Below, piece after piece: positions 7,020 through 31,071 of a stretch of 64,000 bases of DNA. The stretch lies in IMG/VR virus record IMGVR_UViG_3300027836_000008. The stretch is one strand, 5' to 3'. The notes beneath the pieces are model-generated. The model worked only from the letters and a program-made list of their open reading frames with translations. It did not search any database and had not been told where the DNA came from. The stretch comes from a virus. Position 1 is the stretch's first letter. Each line of letters starts with the position of its first letter. The position numbers and the translations under genes are program-made.

Positions 7020-7244
7020 TTAAAGAATATAGTTGCTGTAGCCAATAACCTGTAGTGGAATTGCTGGGGTATTTCCTAAGCCCAGTGCTTGCACCTGTAT
7101 TGTTGTAAATTTAACCCTAAAAGGCAAAACATCGCTTACAACTGTGTTTCTTGTAAAGTCTTTTACCTTAACCAATGGATAATCTATTGGAAAAATTCTT
7201 TTTGTTTTATTGTTTAGTTCATCAAGTATTAATGCTGTTGCCAT
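7020..7244 (-). CDS. Hypothetical structural-module protein
   Basis: 74 aa; stop/start overlap with 7244..7654. Confidence 0.65.
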   Translation of the reverse strand: MATALILDELNNKTKRIFPIDYPLVKVKDFTRNTVVSDVLPFRVKFTTIQVQALGLGNTPAIPLQVIGYSNYIL

Positions 7245-7654
7245 TAATCTGTTACATCTTCAAGAATCTTCATGCTGCCCTGACAAACTGTCCAAACTCT
7301 TGTAGGGTCTGTCAATTGAATATCAAAGATGTCTCCTGTTTGTAAGACATTAGATTCTTCTGCTGTAAGCCAAACTGTAAACTCTCCAACTAAGTCATCT
7401 TCATCTGCTGCTGGAGTTAAAGCCATAATTGTTACTGCATCATCTGTAATTATCCCAGGGGTTGAATTAGGTCTCTTAATCTTCATGGAAATGACCCACT
7501 CAGATCCCTCGCCTTTTAGGACAAGCGGTGCCTTAGCATCATCTGTTACATAAACCTTAAAGCCAGATGTGTCACCACGAACCACAGTCCAAATAACTGT
7601 TGGTGGCTTATTTCCAATATCATATGATCCTGACGATCCACGTGTTGTTGCCAT
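7244..7654 (-). CDS. Baseplate/tail adaptor-like protein (BppU-N-like)
   Basis: W.VVRGDT...FDIQL...VWTV.QG pattern, shared with 16965..17327 and 20230..20607. Confidence 0.55.
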   Translation of the reverse strand: MATTRGSSGSYDIGNKPPTVIWTVVRGDTSGFKVYVTDDAKAPLVLKGEGSEWVISMKIKRPNSTPGIITDDAVTIMALTPAADEDDLVGEFTVWLTAEESNVLQTGDIFDIQLTDPTRVWTVCQGSMKILEDVTD

Positions 7655-24582: not shown

Positions 24583-24752
24583 TGATGACTCGTAAAGACT
24601 ATGTAAAGGTCGCTGATATTCTTGCAGGATATAAAGACGGCATGGCTGATAATTTTTGGTGGGAAGACCTGCTAAATGATTTTGCGTTAATGTTCGCAGA
24701 AGATAATCCAAATTTCAAACACGATAAATTTATGGAGGCTTGTAATGGATAG
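24582..24752 (+). CDS. Small phage protein (MTRKDY...NPNF..DKF..AC type)
   Basis: Read by hand; TAATG coupling. Confidence 0.7.
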   Translation: MMTRKDYVKVADILAGYKDGMADNFWWEDLLNDFALMFAEDNPNFKHDKFMEACNG

Positions 24753-24891
24753 TTACTATTTTGATTTGTGGACTGTGTGGGCTGTAATTATTGCACTACT
24801 TAGTTCAATGCTAATGTTGATTTATTCTATGGTAACAATTTACTATAAAGATAAATACATAATTGAATTAGAAGAAAAACTAAAACTATAA
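24745..24891 (+). CDS. Small membrane protein
   Basis: Read by hand; hydrophobic stretch WAVIIALLSSMLMLIYSMV. Confidence 0.55.
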   Translation: MDSYYFDLWTVWAVIIALLSSMLMLIYSMVTIYYKDKYIIELEEKLKL

Positions 24892-25177
24892 AAAGAAATC
24901 CTGAGCATGATCTAAAACTGCTTGAAGTTTCAACTAAAATGCCCGAGGAGTTATCCACAGGCTGTGTATAACCTTACGTACGATGTGAGATTAATCACAG
25001 GACTTGAGCGTCTCAATATATGGAAATACTGGCTAGTAAGTTGATATTTTATGTCTAATAGGCTAGACTTACATAGTAAGAAAAAATAAATAAATAAGTA
25101 TGTACGGCGTGTCGTTTAGGAAATGTCAGTCATATATGCTAAGATATTTATATCAACAAAAAGAAAGTGGTGACACT

Positions 25178-25381
25178 ATGTCAGCAAATGTATACTCAGT
25201 CCAGTCCCTTCTAGTGGGAACAAATTACTCTTCACGCACCTTGCAAGGTGAAATTGTAAGTGCAGAGCCTCACCCTCATGCAGTTTGGTATGAGGGTTGC
25301 GATACCTATCTTGTAGAGGTTGCGCCTAATAGTGGCTATGGAAGAAAATTCCGTACAGTCGCAGTAAAGGTAGGTGCATAA
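25178..25381 (+). CDS. Small early protein
   Basis: MSANVYSV...; RBS upstream. Confidence 0.7.
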   Translation: MSANVYSVQSLLVGTNYSSRTLQGEIVSAEPHPHAVWYEGCDTYLVEVAPNSGYGRKFRTVAVKVGA

Positions 25382-25524
25382 TGGGATATATTGAAATCTT
25401 TAGAATTGACAATGACGGCGCAGGTTGGATAGACTTAGCGCAAGCAAATGAAAATGAACTATTTAATTTAGAGTTGGGCTTACTTAATGAAGGCGCACTC
25501 TTTAGCACTAAGGAGGCTAACTAA
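25381..25524 (+). CDS. Small early protein
   Basis: Read by hand: MGYIEIFRID...; TAATG couplings. Confidence 0.6.
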   Translation: MGYIEIFRIDNDGAGWIDLAQANENELFNLELGLLNEGALFSTKEAN

Positions 25525-25733
25525 TGGAATATAACTACTCACTAACTATCTCATATGACGGAGACCTTGTATCAACAACACGAAGTGCAGATATGCTAGA
25601 AATGGTAACTGCATGGAATAAGTGTGTAGACTTTGGTGACGCTAAAGAATACGCAACCTACAACCTATCAGACCCTATGGGTAAAATGTACACTAAGACC
25701 TTCTATCGTAACGGAAATGTGAGCGTAAAATAA
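25524..25733 (+). CDS. Small early protein
   Basis: AAGGAGG RBS. Confidence 0.75.
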   Translation: MEYNYSLTISYDGDLVSTTRSADMLEMVTAWNKCVDFGDAKEYATYNLSDPMGKMYTKTFYRNGNVSVK

Positions 25734-25734
25734 T

Positions 25735-26019
25735 ATGGGAGCAGTAACAGCACTAGGAATTCAAGATACAGTCCTTGACCTTGAGACTCAGATTCTCTAT
25801 CACTTGAAGTCTAATCACTATCCTCCAGTCCCCTCAGAAATGGTGCAGCCTTGCATAGATGCTATTGACGCATACTATGAGGAAGACTATCAGCGCATGA
25901 TTGACATGCCAATGGTTGGTGACTTTCAGATAACTTATCGTGGCTCAACCCAAGCCCCTGCAAGTGCAATTATTGAACAGCACCACTTATCATTCTGGCT
26001 TCCAGAGGAGGACTATTAA
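25735..26019 (+). CDS. Conserved actinophage hypothetical protein
   Basis: HL.SNHYPPVP...PCIDAID...HHL..WL. Confidence 0.75.
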   Translation: MGAVTALGIQDTVLDLETQILYHLKSNHYPPVPSEMVQPCIDAIDAYYEEDYQRMIDMPMVGDFQITYRGSTQAPASAIIEQHHLSFWLPEEDY

Positions 26020-26020
26020 A

Positions 26021-26263
26021 ATGGCTGATACAATGATAAACATGGAATTTAAAAAGGTAGATGTACTCAACGTTGATCAGTTAGAGGTTGACGATTATAT
26101 TTCAGTCAATGGTGATATCGTTCAGATAACAGGTATCACACCACTATCAGATGGATATGCAATAATGTATCTTGATGACTATGATGAAACAGATTTAATT
26201 GAAGTTGATGACTACGCTACATTCAGTTGGTATATTCCAGTTGATGAAGATGTAGACGAATAA
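26021..26263 (+). CDS. Acidic small protein
   Basis: MADTMINMEF...; GAGGAG RBS. Confidence 0.7.
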   Translation: MADTMINMEFKKVDVLNVDQLEVDDYISVNGDIVQITGITPLSDGYAIMYLDDYDETDLIEVDDYATFSWYIPVDEDVDE

Positions 26264-26329
26264 TTATTCACTGCCTTGCATAAAATGGGGCCCGAGGCGT
26301 TTTGTCCCATATGTCCGTTTTAAGATGAG

Positions 26330-26358
26330 TTGACATTTTCTCCCATGTTTGCTAGTAT
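26330..26358 (+). promoter_or_regulatory. Early promoter with leaderless gene
   Basis: TTGACA-17-TAGTAT-6 nt-ATG (26365). Confidence 0.75.
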
Positions 26359-26364
26359 TAAGTT

Positions 26365-26505
26365 ATGAAGAAAACACCAGAGGAATTACGTAGGCTTATG
26401 GAATTACGCCGTAGCAACGCTGCCTCTGCTGTGCCCTCTAAAAATAAATACAAAAGAAATAGACAAAGTACTAGAAAAATGCTAGACTTATCTAAAGAAC
26501 AATAA
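26365..26505 (+). CDS. Small basic protein (ELRRSNAA type)
   Basis: Read by hand; leaderless start. Confidence 0.65.
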   Translation: MKKTPEELRRLMELRRSNAASAVPSKNKYKRNRQSTRKMLDLSKEQ

Positions 26506-26518
26506 AGGAGACCCCCTA

Positions 26519-26698
26519 ATGGCTAATATGTATGAAGATGAAATGTTCGATGAGTACTACTCAACAACCTGCCCAGAATGTAAAGAAAATGCGGTTGACG
26601 CATATGAAGAAAAGTGCACTCACTGTTTGCTAGAAGAGATGTCTGCAATGTACAATGAAGATATCGCTCTAGAAATGAGTCTTGGCCTTGACTACTAA
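26519..26698 (+). CDS. Small zinc-ribbon protein
   Basis: Read by hand: CPEC...CTHC; GGAGACCC leader. Confidence 0.65.
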   Translation: MANMYEDEMFDEYYSTTCPECKENAVDAYEEKCTHCLLEEMSAMYNEDIALEMSLGLDY

Positions 26699-27422
26699 TA
26701 CACTTAAACTAAAACGCTCTAATGATAGAAAGGTGGCTAACCTTGTCACTAAAAATGGAAAGCAGGCCGCAATTGCAAATACCTTTGGACTACCTGCAGG
26801 AAAAGCCTATTCATGTCCTGGCGCAACGACTGTCTGTGAAACTGTTTGCTATGCAGGCAAGTTGGAAAAACTATTCAAGGGTGTAAAGGTTAACCTACTA
26901 CACAATTGGGACCTACTCAAAGATTCTGATCGTCAGACAATGTACACTTTACTTTCTGAGATGATTGCAGAATTTAAAACTGATTGTGTAAAGAAAGACG
27001 CACCTATGCTATTTCGCATTCACTGGGATGGCGATTTCTTTAACGATGAGTACACTCAAGCATGGCGCATGGTTATTGAAGAACAACCTGATATCCAATT
27101 CTGGGTATACACTCGTGTGAAGAGTGCTGCACTAATACTAAAAGACATTCCTAATCTATCTTTATACTATTCTACAGATAGTGAGAATAAGTCTATAGGT
27201 GTTGAACTTAAAAAAGACCATGGTGTTCGTCTTGCATATCTTGCTAAGAATTTTGCAATTGGTCAAGCGGACATGAAAGAATTAATGGGCAAGCCTGGCG
27301 CTAAGTGCCCTGAGAATAAAAAAGCAATTCCACTTATTAGCACTACAGGTAGCGCTTGCGTTTCATGTTCACTTTGTGTATACTCTAAGAGTGATATTGT
27401 ATTCAGTGCGAGTAAAAAATAA
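26682..27422 (+). CDS. Phage GP88-like protein (radical-SAM-like Fe-S)
   Basis: SCPGATTVCETVCYA; FRIHWDGDF; WVYTR; STD; CP...C..C..C. Confidence 0.75.
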   Translation: MALTTNTLKLKRSNDRKVANLVTKNGKQAAIANTFGLPAGKAYSCPGATTVCETVCYAGKLEKLFKGVKVNLLHNWDLLKDSDRQTMYTLLSEMIAEFKTDCVKKDAPMLFRIHWDGDFFNDEYTQAWRMVIEEQPDIQFWVYTRVKSAALILKDIPNLSLYYSTDSENKSIGVELKKDHGVRLAYLAKNFAIGQADMKELMGKPGAKCPENKKAIPLISTTGSACVSCSLCVYSKSDIVFSASKK

Positions 27423-27653
27423 ATGAGGACCTTTGCGTTTGTCTTGCTCTGGTTATTTTATTTATTCCTGTTGCAGTAAATCCCCTGCGATCCCGTGAAA
27501 GGGCTCGGGGGCAAAACTTTGGATTTGTCAAATTAAGAACACGCTCTTAAGATGTGGGCTTTATCACACCTGAAAATTTCACTTGGATTGGTATTTATGA
27601 CATTTTTCCGCTATACTTATAATATACCCAAACAGAAAGGCAAGACCCCCCAC

Positions 27654-27824
27654 ATGACACTATCAGGATACACATACCAAATTGGCGATTTGTTCACAAC
27701 AAGCAAGACAGGCGTGACAGGTCGTATCAAGGACTTTACTGCAATCAATTCTAAACTAACTAGAGTTTCTTTGCAACTCGCAAACGGCGCACACCGCTTT
27801 GCTATGGTCAAGACCAGCAAGTAA
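27654..27824 (+). CDS. Small SH3/KOW-like protein, copy 1
   Basis: YQIGDLFTTSKTGVTGRI. Confidence 0.7.
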   Translation: MTLSGYTYQIGDLFTTSKTGVTGRIKDFTAINSKLTRVSLQLANGAHRFAMVKTSK

Positions 27825-27828
27825 CGAT

Positions 27829-27857
27829 TTGACATTTCCTGCAAGAAATGTTACACT
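27829..27857 (+). promoter_or_regulatory. Early promoter
   Basis: TTGACA-17-TACACT. Confidence 0.7.
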
Positions 27858-27896
27858 TAATACATAAGCAAAACCCCTAACAGAAAAGAGAAAATA

Positions 27897-28064
27897 ATGT
27901 CAGTAGCAACAGCAACATACAAGGTAGGCGACCTATTCACTACACAGAAGTCAAAGGTCACAGGTACTATCATGGAAATCACACCTAACAAGGACGGACA
28001 GAGTGTTCGTGTAAAGTTAGATGTAAATGGCACACCTCGTTACACAACTTGGACAGCAAAGTAA
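27897..28064 (+). CDS. Small SH3/KOW-like protein, copy 2
   Basis: Read by hand: YKVGDLFTTQKSKVTGTI. Confidence 0.7.
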   Translation: MSVATATYKVGDLFTTQKSKVTGTIMEITPNKDGQSVRVKLDVNGTPRYTTWTAK

Positions 28065-28137
28065 ATTAACAACCTCACCTGAGTAAGTGATAAAACTGCT
28101 CAACACAAACCCCCTAACAGAAAAGGAATACACCCAA

Positions 28138-28563
28138 ATGGCAACAAGAGGAAAAGCAATCTCAGTTAAAATCGCAACACCAAAGGTAATCAAGGCACTA
28201 GAAACAGCACTTGCAAAACTAACATCAGACTATGCAACACAAGAAGCAAACGAAGCAAAGTATCAGAAGGCTTTTGAGAAGCACAAGAAAGAACTTATTG
28301 CTTATGCTGTAAAGAATATCGCAAAGGCAGAAAACTTCCGTACTAACTATCGTTCATGGAATAACTTGCTTAACATTGACTTTGACCTCACAGTATCAGA
28401 GGCAAATCTTCCTAAGCAACCTGAGCGTGATTTCGTAACCATGAACGAATATGAGTTCCGTAATCAAAAGGAAGAAATTGAGAACGCAATTCGTATTCTC
28501 AAGATGACAGATGAAGAAGTTGTAAATACTTCTACATATAATGCGGTAGCCCGTTACCTCTAA
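28138..28563 (+). CDS. Helical hypothetical protein
   Basis: MATRGKAISVKI...; AACAGAAAAGGA leader. Confidence 0.75.
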   Translation: MATRGKAISVKIATPKVIKALETALAKLTSDYATQEANEAKYQKAFEKHKKELIAYAVKNIAKAENFRTNYRSWNNLLNIDFDLTVSEANLPKQPERDFVTMNEYEFRNQKEEIENAIRILKMTDEEVVNTSTYNAVARYL

Positions 28564-28630
28564 TAATCTATCTCCTGAGCATGAGTCTAAACTGCTCACA
28601 ACAAACCCACTAATAGAATTGGAAAACATA

Positions 28631-28783
28631 ATGTACAACTTCACTATCACACAGGGTAAGAAGACTATCCTACAGTTTACAGATAAGACTGCTATCAAGG
28701 CTCATGCTATCGTAACTACCGCCAACGAATTGGCTAAGTACAAGAGCCAGCACCTTTCCTATACTTACCAATACGCTAAGTAG
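28631..28783 (+). CDS. Small early protein
   Basis: Read by hand: MYNFTITQGKK... Confidence 0.55.
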   Translation: MYNFTITQGKKTILQFTDKTAIKAHAIVTTANELAKYKSQHLSYTYQYAK

Positions 28784-28964
28784 ATGGAATTCGCCAGGCT
28801 GATTAGGGCGATCATAGAAATACTATAGAGCAGGGGTACTGCAGCCCCAAAGAAGCAGACCTCCTGGGTATGAGCCAAAACTACCCTCCAGCAATGGATT
28901 TGACTTTGTCAGTGGTCTCGTGTAGACTAGTATTAATACAAACAAACAGAAAAGGTGCCCTCTA

Positions 28965-29384
28965 ATGGAAACAACAAACACAACAATCGTAAACGCAACT
29001 ACAGAATTCCTGCAGTCACAAATCGTGGCCAAGGACCTACGTATTCAAGAAATTGAACAGACACTGGATGCATCACACCGTCGCTACCAAGGTGTGAAGA
29101 ATATGTATGACACACTACGTGATTCAATGGAACAGTGGACCAAGGACCAATTCAAGAATGGTGACCTTACAGAAGAGCAGGCAGAAGAACTTGCTGCAAC
29201 TGTTGGATTTGAATTGTCAGAAGAAGTTGAAGTGCTCGTGACTGTAGAGTACTCAATCACCGTTAATGTTCCACTTGGTGGAGATGCAGAAGATATCGTT
29301 AACAATATTGATTTCGAAACAATTGACTACAACGATGAAAACATTTCTTACTTAACAGGTACCGTAACAGGAATCGATATTTAG
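28965..29384 (+). CDS. Coiled-coil/acidic hypothetical protein
   Basis: Promoter TTGACT-17-TAGACT at 28900; leader and RBS present. Confidence 0.75.
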   Translation: METTNTTIVNATTEFLQSQIVAKDLRIQEIEQTLDASHRRYQGVKNMYDTLRDSMEQWTKDQFKNGDLTEEQAEELAATVGFELSEEVEVLVTVEYSITVNVPLGGDAEDIVNNIDFETIDYNDENISYLTGTVTGIDI

Positions 29385-29629
29385 TAGGGGGCTACTAATA
29401 GACCTGTCACATGTCTTTAAACTGGATGAGGGCCCTGAGCATGGCCATGTAAACTGCTCACTTTTTATTCCCCAAAATTTTGCTCGGGGGCGCTGTGATC
29501 AACATCACAATGTGTTTAAGATCACCTTTAAGAAATGTCCGAATTATCCCCCATCTAACTATCCTGATTTGCATATGTCAGTCCATCCTGCTATACTTAA
29601 AATATCAACAAACAGAAAAGAGATAACTC

Positions 29630-30652
29630 ATGGCACATGACCTAGAAACACAAAACGGCGTTGCATCATTCGCATCATTCCGTGAACCAGCATGGCATGG
29701 ATTGGGTACAGTCTTTACAGAAGAAAAGACAACTGCAGAAATGCTAGAGGCTGCAAACCTCAATGGTTGGAATGTTCGTCTGGAAGATTTAGAGACCCCT
29801 ACCCATCTAACAAGCGACAAATCATATCAATATGTTTTGCGTACTAACCCTACAGAAAAAACACAGACAGACATTCTTGGAATTGTTGGTGAGCGTTATG
29901 TTCCACTACAAAACGAAGATTTGTTTTCATTTGGTGATAACATCCTAGACGGCGGTGGTCGTTGGGAGACTGCTGGCTCAATCAAGGGTGGGCGTGTAGT
30001 ATTTGGCTCACTTGCTCTTGAGCGTGAAACAGTTCTTGACCCTAATGGCGTGGCAGATGTTGTAAAAACTTATTTGCTCATCAACACATCACACGACGGC
30101 TCAATTGCTATTCAAGCATCAATTACACCAGTTCGTGTTGTATGCGCTAATACTCTTAACCTTGCTCTTGGTGGCGTAGGTCGTAAGAAGAATAAGGGCA
30201 TCAAGCAATCTTTCAAGATTCGCCACACACAGACAGCAGAAGGCAAGATTCAAATTGCTCGTGAGACTCTTGGTCTTGCTAATGCTTACATGGATGAATT
30301 CGACATCATGGCTAAGGCAATGATTGAGAAGGAAGTCAATGCTAAGCAATTTAACGACATCTTGCTTGCTGCTTATGCAAAGCCTGAAAAGGATGCTAAG
30401 GGCGCAATCAAGAAGTGGGAAAACAAAATCGATACCATTAACGACATCTACACAGGTGAATTTAATGGCATGATTGCTGGCTCTGCTTGGGGTGCGTTTA
30501 ATGCACTTACAGAACGCCTTGATTGGTACCGCACAGCACGAGGTGGTTCTAACGAATCAATTCTTGCATCTGCAAGTGGATTTGACCCTGCTATCAATGC
30601 AGAAAAGAATCGCTTGCTGAAAGTTGTGCAGAATGTTATGCAACTCGCATAG
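29630..30652 (+). CDS. DUF932/DUF945 phage-plasmid-like protein (TIGR03299 type)
   Basis: MAHDLE...REPAWHGLGTV; Y.PLQN; ETAGSIKGGR.VF; NTSHDGS; TPVRVVCANTL; IRHT; GSAWGAFNA.TE..D. Confidence 0.9.
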   Translation: MAHDLETQNGVASFASFREPAWHGLGTVFTEEKTTAEMLEAANLNGWNVRLEDLETPTHLTSDKSYQYVLRTNPTEKTQTDILGIVGERYVPLQNEDLFSFGDNILDGGGRWETAGSIKGGRVVFGSLALERETVLDPNGVADVVKTYLLINTSHDGSIAIQASITPVRVVCANTLNLALGGVGRKKNKGIKQSFKIRHTQTAEGKIQIARETLGLANAYMDEFDIMAKAMIEKEVNAKQFNDILLAAYAKPEKDAKGAIKKWENKIDTINDIYTGEFNGMIAGSAWGAFNALTERLDWYRTARGGSNESILASASGFDPAINAEKNRLLKVVQNVMQLA

Positions 30653-30698
30653 CATCTGATACAATTAAATCCTGAGCATGATTTAAAACTGCTCACAA

Positions 30699-30772
30699 GG
30701 TCCGTTAGAATAGTTGGTTAGTTCGCTACCCTGTCACGGTAGAGGTCACGGGTTCAAGTCCCGTACGGATCG
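30699..30772 (+). tRNA. tRNA-Asp(GUC)
   Basis: GGTCCGT/ACGGATC acceptor; CTACC-CT GTC AC-GGTAG; GGTTCAAGTCC T-arm. Confidence 0.95.
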
Positions 30773-30859
30773 CAAGCGTAAAAGGGGCCCCGAGGTGAGA
30801 TTTATCGGGGGCATGTGATTAAGATCACTAAGATTTTTCCCTGGAATTCTATTAAGGAC

Positions 30860-30888
30860 TTGACATTATTTTCCTGGAGATGTAGAAT
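30860..30888 (+). promoter_or_regulatory. Early promoter with leaderless gene
   Basis: TTGACA-17-TAGAAT-6 nt-ATG. Confidence 0.75.
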
Positions 30889-30894
30889 TAATAC

Positions 30895-31071
30895 ATGACC
30901 CAAACACCATATAAACCATATACCATAGACGAACTTGTTACCTCTATCTATGAGGATAATTACTCTCACTTTGAATTCATGGAAAACATGAATGGTGGAG
31001 AATGCGATTGTGTACTACATCAAGCCATGTGGCTAATTATGAAGCATTGGGAGGGTGAAGATGTGGAGTAA
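30895..31071 (+). CDS. Small early protein
   Basis: Read by hand: MTQTPYKPYTIDEL...CDC.LH. Confidence 0.65.
   Translation: MTQTPYKPYTIDELVTSIYEDNYSHFEFMENMNGGECDCVLHQAMWLIMKHWEGEDVE

Follow-up and report, generated by a model that had tools for sequence, protein, structure and literature searches.

A small conserved RNA pseudoknot at gene ends in phages and bacteria

Where RNA motifs of very small size are kept nearly letter for letter across unrelated phages and many phyla, they have mostly proved to act as riboswitches, as ribozymes or as handles for core cellular machinery. The element considered here, which we identify with high confidence as an H-type pseudoknot of 27-30 nt formed on the sense transcript, can be set beside several described systems. 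The preQ1-I aptamer (RF00522) is likewise an H-type pseudoknot of about 30 nt, with one sequence-free helix, conserved loops and an A-rich L3 in the minor groove of S1. The likeness is, however, one of fold only: S2 of the gene-end element has 6 bp rather than 3-4, L2 is a single unconserved nucleotide, several copies can occur per operon at gene ends, cmscan returns no hit at E≤10, and queuosine/preQ1 genes are absent from the neighbour-gene families returned. Frameshift and read-through pseudoknots (of the BWYV/luteovirid type or MuLV gag-pol) share the compact H-type architecture, the C in L1 and the A-rich L3, and minimum spacing would place our element, like them, 5-6 nt after the A-site codon. 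Yet it follows ordinary stops with no extended frame, and 40% of copies lie farther off. Judged on spacing, which consists of a floor and a long tail with no 3-nt periodicity, and on reading frame, it does not qualify as a -1 frameshift or read-through stimulator.

Like 3' stabiliser hairpins, REPs and intrinsic terminators, the element sits at gene ends and between cistrons, sometimes with a U-run, and would be expected at the 3' end of an mRNA. However, REPs are species-specific, terminators need GC-rich stems plus a U-tract, and our element is a pseudoknot with weak helices and a primary sequence common across phyla. A working analogy may also be drawn with flavivirus xrRNAs, small conserved pseudoknotted folds that protect adjoining RNA from a processive exonuclease. 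These stop Xrn1, which degrades RNA 5'-to-3', by means of a ring-like three-way junction some 70 nt long, whereas the gene-end element is a plain H-type pseudoknot whose putative resistance would act in the proposed 3'-to-5' direction.

We analysed a 64,000-nt stretch of viral DNA (the window; IMG/VR record IMGVR_UViG_3300027836_000008), for which an initial annotation had reported six plus-strand copies of an RNA hairpin. A scan with the degenerate pattern CCTGRGYA-N5-12-AAACTRCYY finds exactly six sites, all on the plus strand (24900, 28078, 28574, 28863, 29434 and 30671), and none in 100 dinucleotide shuffles. A covariance model derived from 145 homologues and applied without filters to the entire window recovers the same six copies and none besides (E = 8e-10 to 6e-3; next hit E = 0.24), confirming the reported set. 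The features discussed below are:

24898..24924, plus strand: pseudoknot copy 1, 34.7 bits (pattern and covariance model)
28075..28102, plus strand: pseudoknot copy 2, 35.8 bits (pattern and covariance model)
28572..28598, plus strand: pseudoknot copy 3, 38.8 bits (pattern and covariance model)
28861..28887, plus strand: pseudoknot copy 4, 30.1 bits (pattern and covariance model)
29403..29428, plus strand: decayed copy, 12.6 bits, E = 0.34 (covariance model)
29431..29460, plus strand: pseudoknot copy 5, 19 bits (pattern and covariance model)
30667..30695, plus strand: pseudoknot copy 6, 44.3 bits (pattern and covariance model)
30699..30773, plus strand: tRNA-Asp(GUC)

The 6-bp helix of the reported hairpin is real and corresponds to S2, but a simple hairpin the element is not, since bases of the supposed loop pair upstream of the CC to form a pseudoknot. 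From 5' to 3' it comprises S1a (2-4 variable nt plus C), L1 (C), S2a (UGAGCA), L2 (U, A or C), S1b (G plus the complement of S1a), about 2 nt, AAAC and S2b (UGCUCA), with some 6 G-poor nucleotides downstream. S1 is thus made of the 2-4 nt ahead of "CC" plus the first C, pairing with the G and following nucleotides of the 11-nt "loop", and its sequence is free to vary while complementarity is kept. In 122 distinct IMG/VR instances picked regardless of S1, Watson-Crick runs at the correct register average 2.8, compared to 0.62±0.08 in 1000 permutations, and other registers are at background. S2, too, has compensated variants (TGGACA/TGTCCA, TAGACA/TGTCTA, TGAACA/TGTTCA, TGGCCA/TGGCCA and TGAGTA/TACTCA), for which shuffled sequence yields 0 hits. 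Across 145 sequences, 95.9% of cells are paired (24-38% in slid registers), double-change cells number 244 versus 74±6 in shuffles, and the closing pair itself switches from C-G to G-C in two relatives (L065 and L097). Two interleaved helices on one strand, with covariation in each, define an H-type pseudoknot. Because G·U pairs far exceed A·C pairs (59 to 10 overall, 29 to 1 in S2 pairs 2-6), it is the sense RNA that folds. What is conserved is the CC, the G, the AAAC and the junction-adjacent C-G and A-U pairs, while distal pairs covary; G is excluded at +1 after S2b (2%), so that the C of L1 stays unpaired. The selection on RNA structure originally proposed is therefore well founded: both helices covary, the G·U pairs are strand-specific and the copies are oriented like the genes.

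In the window, copies end each of five consecutive genes. Copy 1 lies 8 nt past the stop of the ORF at 24745-24891, with a promoter-like site downstream at 25041; its S1a is AT plus C, L1 is C and S1b is AT, and S2a (TGAGCA) is followed by TG, S1b, CTA-AAAC and S2b (TGCTTG), with two G·U pairs. Copies 2 and 3 are intercistronic, the former 13 nt past the stop of ORF 27897-28064 and 35 nt ahead of the ATG at 28138, the latter 10 nt past the stop of ORF 28138-28563 and 32 nt ahead of the ATG at 28631. S1 pairs TCA/TGA plus C-G in copy 2 and CT/AG plus C-G in copy 3; S2 is TGAGTA/TGCTCA with one U·G in copy 2 and canonical in copy 3. The wobbles initially noted in two copies are thus those at 24900 and 28078. 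Copy 4, 79 nt past the stop of ORF 28631-28783 and 13 nt ahead of a promoter-like TTGACT-17-TAGACT, has S2 TGGGTA/TACCCT with the first pair unpaired, and the two compensatory swaps ascribed to it are indeed double changes (A-U to G-C and C-G to U-A). Copy 5 (S1 GGC/GCC plus C-G, S2 canonical) carries a 7-nt insert before the AAAC, which is, as observed earlier, an invariant of the window copies; it looks terminator-like because CTTTTTATT (29461-29469) comes directly after it, and it is the sole window copy with a T-run downstream, which agrees with the earlier remark that most copies lack a U-tract. Copy 6 (S1 AAAT/ATTT plus C-G, S2 canonical) lies 18 nt past the stop of a DUF932 gene (29630-30652) and ends at 30695, 3 nt ahead of tRNA-Asp as reported. 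The order of DUF932 gene, pseudoknot and tRNA-Asp is kept in relatives, and once RNase P had processed the tRNA at its 5' side, the upstream mRNA would have copy 6 plus 3 nt as its end. The element at 29403, previously suspected to be degenerate, scores weakly and retains CC and AAAC, having lost the closing G and two junction-side S2 pairs; we regard it as a decayed copy because a relative (L206) has an intact one at the orthologous place.

At least 119 IMG/VR contigs, drawn from many phage lineages, carry the exact motif, as do assemblies of bacteria and archaea from many phyla, the archaeal occurrence being probable; the view of it as an early-transcript signal of this phage must consequently be given up. 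In each large relative the copies cluster in a single stretch of small genes 4-8 kb long. Five bacterial genomes checked hold one copy apiece, which, with the same sequence recurring across many phyla and phage lineages, eliminates a REP or other species-specific gene-end repeat. The pseudoknot matches no catalogued RNA family in Rfam 15: at gathering score the whole window gives only tRNAs, and nineteen loci give tRNA, tmRNA-like, DUF2800 and hammerhead hits, of which none falls on the pseudoknot itself; at E≤10 the three copies in positions 28040-28920 of the window are without any hit; and at E≤1 positions 7150-7650 of relative L137 give only hammerheads. A known Rfam family would, according to the initial annotation, have removed novelty, and novelty stands. 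These searches also gave no match of the pseudoknot itself to the small ribozymes (hammerhead, twister, twister-sister, pistol, hatchet, HDV-like), and HDV-like ribozymes carry P3 where the interleaved S1 and S2 of our element leave only 1 nt. RAGATH-type orphan RNA motifs come from the vicinity of twister and hammerhead ribozymes (Weinberg et al. 2015, as summarised in PMC11061315). Compared through Rfam families and that summary, our element resembles them as an orphan structured RNA of phage-like intergenic regions with copies beside type III hammerheads and RF02960, and differs from them as a pseudoknot without an Rfam 15 match; it may be some RAGATH motif that is uncatalogued there.

We are highly confident that this is a generic gene-end element and that it lies at the closest distance from the preceding stop codon which a terminating ribosome leaves free. 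An ORF on the same strand precedes 153 of 158 copies, and 103 of the 155 that could be classified are intercistronic in co-directional gene strings; convergent junctions number 13 against six divergent ones, which accords with a place at gene ends; neighbouring genes are heterogeneous both upstream and downstream, with no functional theme. The distance from stop to CC has a sharp floor at 8 nt (23 copies at 8 nt and 20 at 9 nt, only three at 0-7 nt) and a tail reaching beyond 100 nt, about 40% of copies lying more than 14 nt away. With at least 8 nt of spacing, some 12 nt separate the first paired base from the first base in the P site, a position just beyond the ribosomal helicase site. Towards the next start codon, distances are spread widely above a floor of around 19 nt. 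Stops within 14 nt ahead of copies are TAA in 70 cases, TAG in 15 and TGA in three, so that UAA is enriched and UGA depleted. In bacteria, some copies belong to 5' UTRs or run across the stop codon of a very small ORF upstream, a setting in which the pseudoknot must be unfolded by translation and which looks regulatory rather than protective.

What follows the element is equally suggestive. Nineteen copies lie 3-13 nt ahead of a tRNA and none after one; type III hammerheads adjoin three copies, with predicted cleavage leaving the pseudoknot plus 5-11 nt; the orphan DUF2800 RNA (RF02960) adjoins three; and T-rich sequence is found downstream of 29 of 158 (~18%). With a tRNA, hammerhead or T-run just downstream, the upstream RNA would end in the pseudoknot. 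The best reading of these arrangements, to which we give somewhat less than an even chance, is that the pseudoknot serves as a 3'-end cap or marker of processed mRNAs, and the stabilisation or processing role first proposed would fit such contexts at transcript ends. The transcript would be cut or ended a few nucleotides downstream, by RNase P where a tRNA follows, by a type III hammerhead or by U-run termination, and elsewhere presumably by a host endonuclease in the G-poor linker. What then remained at the 3' terminus of the upstream mRNA would be the pseudoknot, followed by too few nucleotides for 3'-to-5' exonucleases to take hold of, and the triplex-type fold of the pseudoknot (single-C L1, A-rich L3) would stabilise or define the end. 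Acting alone or with machinery common to bacteria and archaea, it would account for the same sequence across unrelated phages and hosts. Our confidence in this inferred mechanism is moderate to low. Counting against a 3'-end cap, besides the regulatory look of the bacterial copies just described, most copies have no recognisable cutting element downstream, the surplus of convergent over divergent junctions is small, and the helices are weak (the S2 hairpin alone reaches -6 to -8 kcal/mol, with unremarkable z-scores), whereas classical 3' stabilisers have long, GC-rich stems and no need of conserved sequence.

There are a number of alternative scenarios. The folded pseudoknot might act on ribosomes at the ORF end, as a roadblock or insulator against read-through or sliding ribosomes or as a modulator of termination and re-initiation for the next cistron, with translation of a tiny upstream ORF turning it off in bacterial 5' UTRs. 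We consider this unlikely. In its favour, the floors towards stop and next start match ribosome footprints on both sides, the 1-nt C L1 and A-rich L3 are the architecture of frameshift and read-through stimulators, bacterial mini-ORFs terminate inside the pseudoknot, and preceding stops are biased as described. Yet any structure avoiding ribosome footprints would give equal floors, the distant copies imply that coupling to termination is not obligatory, spacing and frame show neither periodicity nor extension, and where a tRNA, hammerhead, promoter or convergent gene follows, there is no downstream cistron for a copy to regulate.

It is rather improbable that the conserved loops are recognised by a protein of phage or host, whether an RNA-binding regulator, a nuclease or an antitermination factor. 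Conservation of loop and junction nucleotides while distal pairs covary would be expected of such a site, as would clustering in one block per large relative. However, no protein family accompanies the element across its carriers (the most widely shared one is found at 31 of 120 loci and is lineage-specific), and single copies in unrelated bacterial chromosomes, and probably in archaea, would require a universal partner. The protein-binding signal of the initial annotation thus has no candidate partner, and for antitermination, also mooted there, nothing speaks: copies sit at gene ends, not next to promoters.

More doubtful again is an intrinsically active RNA, either a minimal ligand or ion aptamer of preQ1-I size or a very small self-cleaving ribozyme. 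Sequence conserved across phyla without a partner, the preQ1-I-like pseudoknot with its A-rich L3, and scatter through phages and bacteria near hammerheads, a typical small-ribozyme neighbourhood, are all consistent with this, and S2 plus the U-run of 18% of copies could form a ligand-tuned terminator. Against it stand the lack of a functional theme among neighbours, the several copies per operon, the small space that a one-nucleotide L2 leaves for a pocket and the absence of Rfam riboswitch or ribozyme hits at E≤10 (positions 28040-28920 of the window). Self-cleavage, earlier suggested for testing, is unlikely, as copies directly precede elements that already bring about cutting (hammerheads, or tRNAs with RNase P) and would make it redundant.

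That the element terminates or attenuates transcription without needing a U-tract is very improbable. Four of the six window copies do come where a transcription unit ends, directly ahead of the next promoter-like site, in a region where a terminator scan finds no canonical terminators. The same scan flags none of the six copies, though, and the T-run at 29434 and the 29 T-rich cases among 158 leave 82% without one, which rejects an intrinsic (Rho-independent) terminator; moreover, two window copies are intercistronic in co-directional strings, as are most classified copies, the stem is short and of modest G+C content, and carriers' RNA polymerases are very different. Finally, a DNA-level feature (inverted-repeat protein site, recombination boundary or mobile-element scar) is barely credible: TGAGCA-N11-TGCTCA is an inverted repeat and copies lie at gene boundaries of mosaic phage genomes, but the flanks (CC, AAAC) are asymmetric, co-orientation with genes is strict, and the strand-specific wobble pairs and S1 covariation, which a duplex-DNA site would not keep, largely refute it.

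To our knowledge, few RNA motifs so small are kept nearly letter for letter across unrelated phages and many phyla of bacterial and archaeal assemblies, and this one has two clearly covarying interleaved helices, a sharp position relative to stop codons and no Rfam entry. It is possible, if doubtful, that the element represents an undescribed class of small autonomous RNA, a conserved pseudoknot of about 28 nt that alone blocks or directs the RNA-processing machinery of bacteria and archaea as a prokaryotic and phage counterpart of xrRNAs, with which phages would punctuate polycistronic transcripts into stable monocistronic mRNAs, sometimes with hammerheads or tRNAs doing the cutting. Whatever the role of the element, simple reporter and nuclease assays can test it directly. 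Should it instead control ribosomes or sense a ligand, it would constitute a new functional RNA class. If the 3'-end cap is true, the way in which phages derive separately stable messages from long early transcripts would be explained, the hammerheads and tRNA genes that lie between phage genes would have a purpose, and synthetic biology would gain a portable module of about 28 nt for insulation or stabilisation.

The element repeated along the plus strand of the window, described in the initial annotation as a simple hairpin, is instead an H-type pseudoknot of 27-30 nt with two interleaved helices, S1 and S2: from 5' to 3', S1a and a C, a further C (L1), S2a (UGAGCA), L2, S1b (a G and the complement of S1a), about 2 nt, AAAC and S2b (UGCUCA). 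The hairpin alone gives weak RNAfold z-scores, and it is covariation in S1 that replaces it by the pseudoknot. Scanning IMG/VR for the exact pattern CCTGAGCA-N5-9-AAACTGCTCA gave matches in at least 119 contigs, a seed that carries ascertainment bias by virtue of the exact pattern. In the matches listed, the 2-4 nt directly 5' of the conserved pair of C at S1a/L1 (CC) are complementary to the nucleotides after the second base of the former 'loop'. Because instances were selected by S2 and AAAC alone, S1 constitutes an unbiased test: across 122 distinct instances the mean Watson-Crick run is 2.8 at this register, compared to 0.62±0.08 when upstream partners are permuted, and no other register rises above background. 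An invariant G is the partner of the first C of CC, and the pair is swapped to G-C in two of the carrying loci (L065 and L097). From the second pairing and this C-G pair it follows that S1 comprises 3-5 bp and that L1 and L2 are one nucleotide each, a C in L1 and unconserved in L2; in 194 of 225 cases the stretch before AAAC is 5 nt long (S1b plus about 2).

S2 also covaries (TGGACA/TGTCCA, TAGACA/TGTCTA and TGAACA/TGTTCA, and further TGGCCA/TGGCCA, TGGGTA/TGCCCA and TGAGTA/TACTCA), and a descriptor of S2 variants has no matches in shuffled sequence. When the pseudoknot is written explicitly into an alignment of 145 sequences, 95.9% of cells are paired, against 24-38% in slid registers, and double-change cells number 244 (74±6 after shuffling). 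Pairing at the third S1 position, which played no part in selection, is seen in 80% of sequences, with six pair types. The conserved core consists of CC, the G, AAAC and the two junction-side S2 pairs; S2 can do without its first pair (U-A). G·U outnumbers A·C by 59 to 10 overall and by 29 to 1 in S2 pairs 2-6, and the position just after S2b (+1) almost never holds a G; we therefore conclude that the sense RNA forms the fold, with the L1 C kept unpaired. We regard this fold as established. Mechanically robust triplex pseudoknots are of the same type: L1, a lone C, crosses the deep groove of S2, and the A-rich L3 occupies the minor groove of S1. The triples predicted for this fold join the L1 C to the C-G pair and set AAAC in that minor groove. 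A relaxed descriptor with L1, L2 and L3 left free returned mostly noise (74 non-canonical matches versus 41 in shuffles).

Features of the window
24900, plus strand: pseudoknot copy
24951-24959: perfect DnaA-box sequence (TTATCCACA)
29494-29509, 30814-30829 and 24987-25000: CRP/GlxR-type boxes (TGTGA-N6-TCACA) and accompanying G/C-rich elements
27630-27650, 27870-27895, 28105-28135, 28944-28955 and 29608-29625: common C/A-rich leader (AAACC.CCTAACAGAAAAGG or AAACAGAAAAG)
27654-27824 and 27897-28064: adjacent paralogous genes of 55-56 aa (…Y.[IV]GDLFTT.K[TS].VTG.I…)
28078, plus strand: pseudoknot copy
28574, plus strand: pseudoknot copy
28863, plus strand: pseudoknot copy
29434, plus strand: pseudoknot copy
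29630-30652: DUF932 gene
30671, plus strand: pseudoknot copy
30699-30773, plus strand: tRNA-Asp gene

All six copies first proposed are recovered by a degenerate pattern search that finds none in 100 shuffles, and a covariance model built from 145 homologues and applied with filters off to all 64 kb of the window returns exactly these six, at 44.3 to 19 bits, with no further match at E < 0.24. Reading the sequence from 24700 to 31000 bears out the details noted initially: compensatory swaps in the 28863 copy, G·U pairs in the 24900 and 28078 copies, an AAAC invariant among the window copies, a T-run after the 29434 copy only, and a tRNA-Asp that starts 3 nt past the last copy. The degenerate copy suspected at 29403 is not significant by itself (12.6 bits) and is orthologous to an intact copy in a relative, L206. 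Five consecutive genes (27897-30652) each have a copy at their end, and four copies precede the next promoter-like site. A terminator scan found no canonical terminators in this region.

Several other elements share this region. The CRP/GlxR-type boxes lie between pseudoknots and next promoters, each with a G/C-rich CCCGAGG or CTCGGGGG element ahead of it, and relatives L015 and L089 carry the same TTATCCACA and CGGGG elements 3' of pseudoknots. The C/A-rich leader, conserved in relatives L005, L089 and L044, stands in place of a classical Shine-Dalgarno before many start codons of the block. Each of the 55-56-aa paralogues has its own promoter-like site, with a pseudoknot 3' of the second only.

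Across loci, the pseudoknot is anchored to the ends of ORFs and fits ribosome footprints on both sides. A same-strand ORF precedes 153 of 158 viral copies, its stop codon mostly UAA. The stop-to-CC distance has a hard floor (23 copies at 8 nt and 20 at 9 nt, only 3 at 0-7 nt), beyond which the distribution decays with a tail past 100 nt. At that floor, an S1a of 3 nt puts the first paired base about 12 nt away from the first base of the P site, a distance at which, as frameshifting studies show, an mRNA duplex can survive beyond the helicase site of the ribosome. Downstream, the spacing to the next start codon varies widely above a floor near 19 nt, and positions +1 to +6 are G-poor. Crude gene calls place 103 copies between cistrons, 13 at convergent junctions and another 6 at divergent junctions. 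Neighbouring genes show no functional theme; the commonest annotated family among the 89 non-redundant viral genes ending in a pseudoknot is that of Hsp20-type small heat-shock proteins (phrog_432; six genes).

Copies also often stand just ahead of devices for cutting or terminating RNA. A T-run follows about 18% of copies. A tRNA lies 3-13 nt downstream of 19 copies, and no copy lies downstream of a tRNA. Fifteen of these tRNAs are Asp, and 15 of the 16 tRNA-Asp genes in the loci examined follow a copy, an association that arises mostly because one gene order (DUF932 gene, pseudoknot, tRNA-Asp) is conserved in the window's phage group; we have accordingly not adopted a functional tie to queuosine-modified tRNAs. 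Type III hammerheads adjoin three copies (two in locus L137, one in L004), and cleavage by the ribozyme would give the upstream RNA a 3' end consisting of the pseudoknot and a further 5-11 nt. At L137:7180-7620 (minus strand) the order is pseudoknot, hammerhead, small ORF with RBS, pseudoknot, hammerhead: if both ribozymes cleaved themselves, a monocistronic RNA would be released that begins with a folded hammerhead and finishes with a pseudoknot, and joining of its 5'-OH and 2',3'-cyclic-phosphate ends into a circle would in principle be possible. The orphan DUF2800 RNA (RF02960) adjoins three copies, its 5' end meeting the pseudoknot with a 0-nt gap (L020:260-445, L164:5407-5592 and L193:5051-5233, minus strand), and the pseudoknot may be its unrecognised 5' extension or neighbour. 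Short tmRNA-model matches (about 75-80 nt), covering only the two ends that form the tRNA-like domain, occur within a few hundred nucleotides of a copy in phage contigs L001 (2105-2185, beside tRNA genes) and L072 (11486-11558); these may be phage tRNA-like RNAs.

Grouped by common proteins, viral carriers form five large communities, with about 29 further small groups or singletons; the window's community comprises 34 loci. The window's DUF932 protein is ~53% identical to proteins of Streptomyces phages (records of 130-133 kb), and megablast of the region against INPHARED phages gave no match. Near-complete relatives (100-117 kb) have 4-6 copies each and a 79%-complete relative three, mostly on one strand within 4-8 kb; reversed-pattern controls gave none. 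An exact-pattern scan of one-genome-per-species prokaryote assemblies yielded at least 120 instances, and among the 120 listed, 72 have S1 pairing and the G, the remainder, without S1 pairing, looking like chance matches. Among the carriers are Saccharibacteria, Chloroflexota, Actinomycetes, Deltaproteobacteria, Bacteroidota, lactobacilli, Omnitrophota and Methanobrevibacter bins. In some, the copy evidently lies on phage DNA within a bin; in others it is chromosomal, for example beside genes for ValRS and HIT, or for amidase, HD and phosphorylase. The five bacterial and archaeal genomes checked have one copy each, and the degenerate pattern occurs in 14 of 301 genomes sampled from the Saccharibacteria carrier's phylum, several looking like chance.

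A conserved bacterial mini-ORF of about 20 aa (MKRYxIPRxAHCSEGC…S; across loci MKR[YF]x[IV]PRxAHC[SD][ED]GC…S) has as its stop codon the UGA inside S2a, an arrangement that looks regulatory. It is found in several phyla, in chromosomal contexts that are unrelated (L163:6845-6927, L146:5497-5588, L160:7497-7579 on the minus strand, L169, L179, L211, L218, L236, L144, L177 and L190), is coding, judging by third-codon-position changes, and has its own promoter and RBS; in several copies a terminator hairpin follows a few nucleotides past the pseudoknot. It has no NCBIfam match, and a protein-database search with the stop-to-stop frame found no homologue. In Saccharibacteria chromosomes (L155:3754-3832, also L122, L167 and L204) the 5' UTR of a 138-aa gene holds the pseudoknot 21 nt before the start; a possible 14-codon upstream ORF overlaps it, with its UAA in L3.

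What might the pseudoknot do? Our tentative preference is that cutting or termination would leave it as the last structure at the 3' end of the upstream message, followed by a tail too short for 3' exonucleases, so that it might stabilise or define that 3' end. The weakness of the helices, the 5'-UTR copies and the mini-ORF all argue against this mechanism. An element directed at the ribosome is an unlikely alternative. That the pseudoknot is the site of a universal protein seems rather doubtful; clustering ORFs around copies gave no family common to carriers. We consider an aptamer or ribozyme improbable: no riboswitch-like association was found among neighbouring genes, and self-cleavage is disfavoured, the cut being supplied already by hammerheads and RNase P. 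A terminator lacking a U-tract is very improbable. A DNA-level site is refuted by the strand-specific wobbles and S1.

As for known families, no Rfam 15 entry matches the pseudoknot at gathering score or E≤10, which upholds the novelty initially supposed. The preQ1-I aptamer and luteovirid frameshift pseudoknots resemble it in fold only, REP and terminator elements in position only, and the theta ribozyme of the literature is a different element, namely HDV-like ribozymes associated with tRNAs. Keyword searches of the literature found no description of the motif, and searches by sequence string returned primers only. The pseudoknot may be among the uncharacterised 'RAGATH'-type motifs found near ribozymes, and an earlier description outside Rfam is possible. 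On present evidence it represents an undescribed, widespread RNA family, the function of which is testable.
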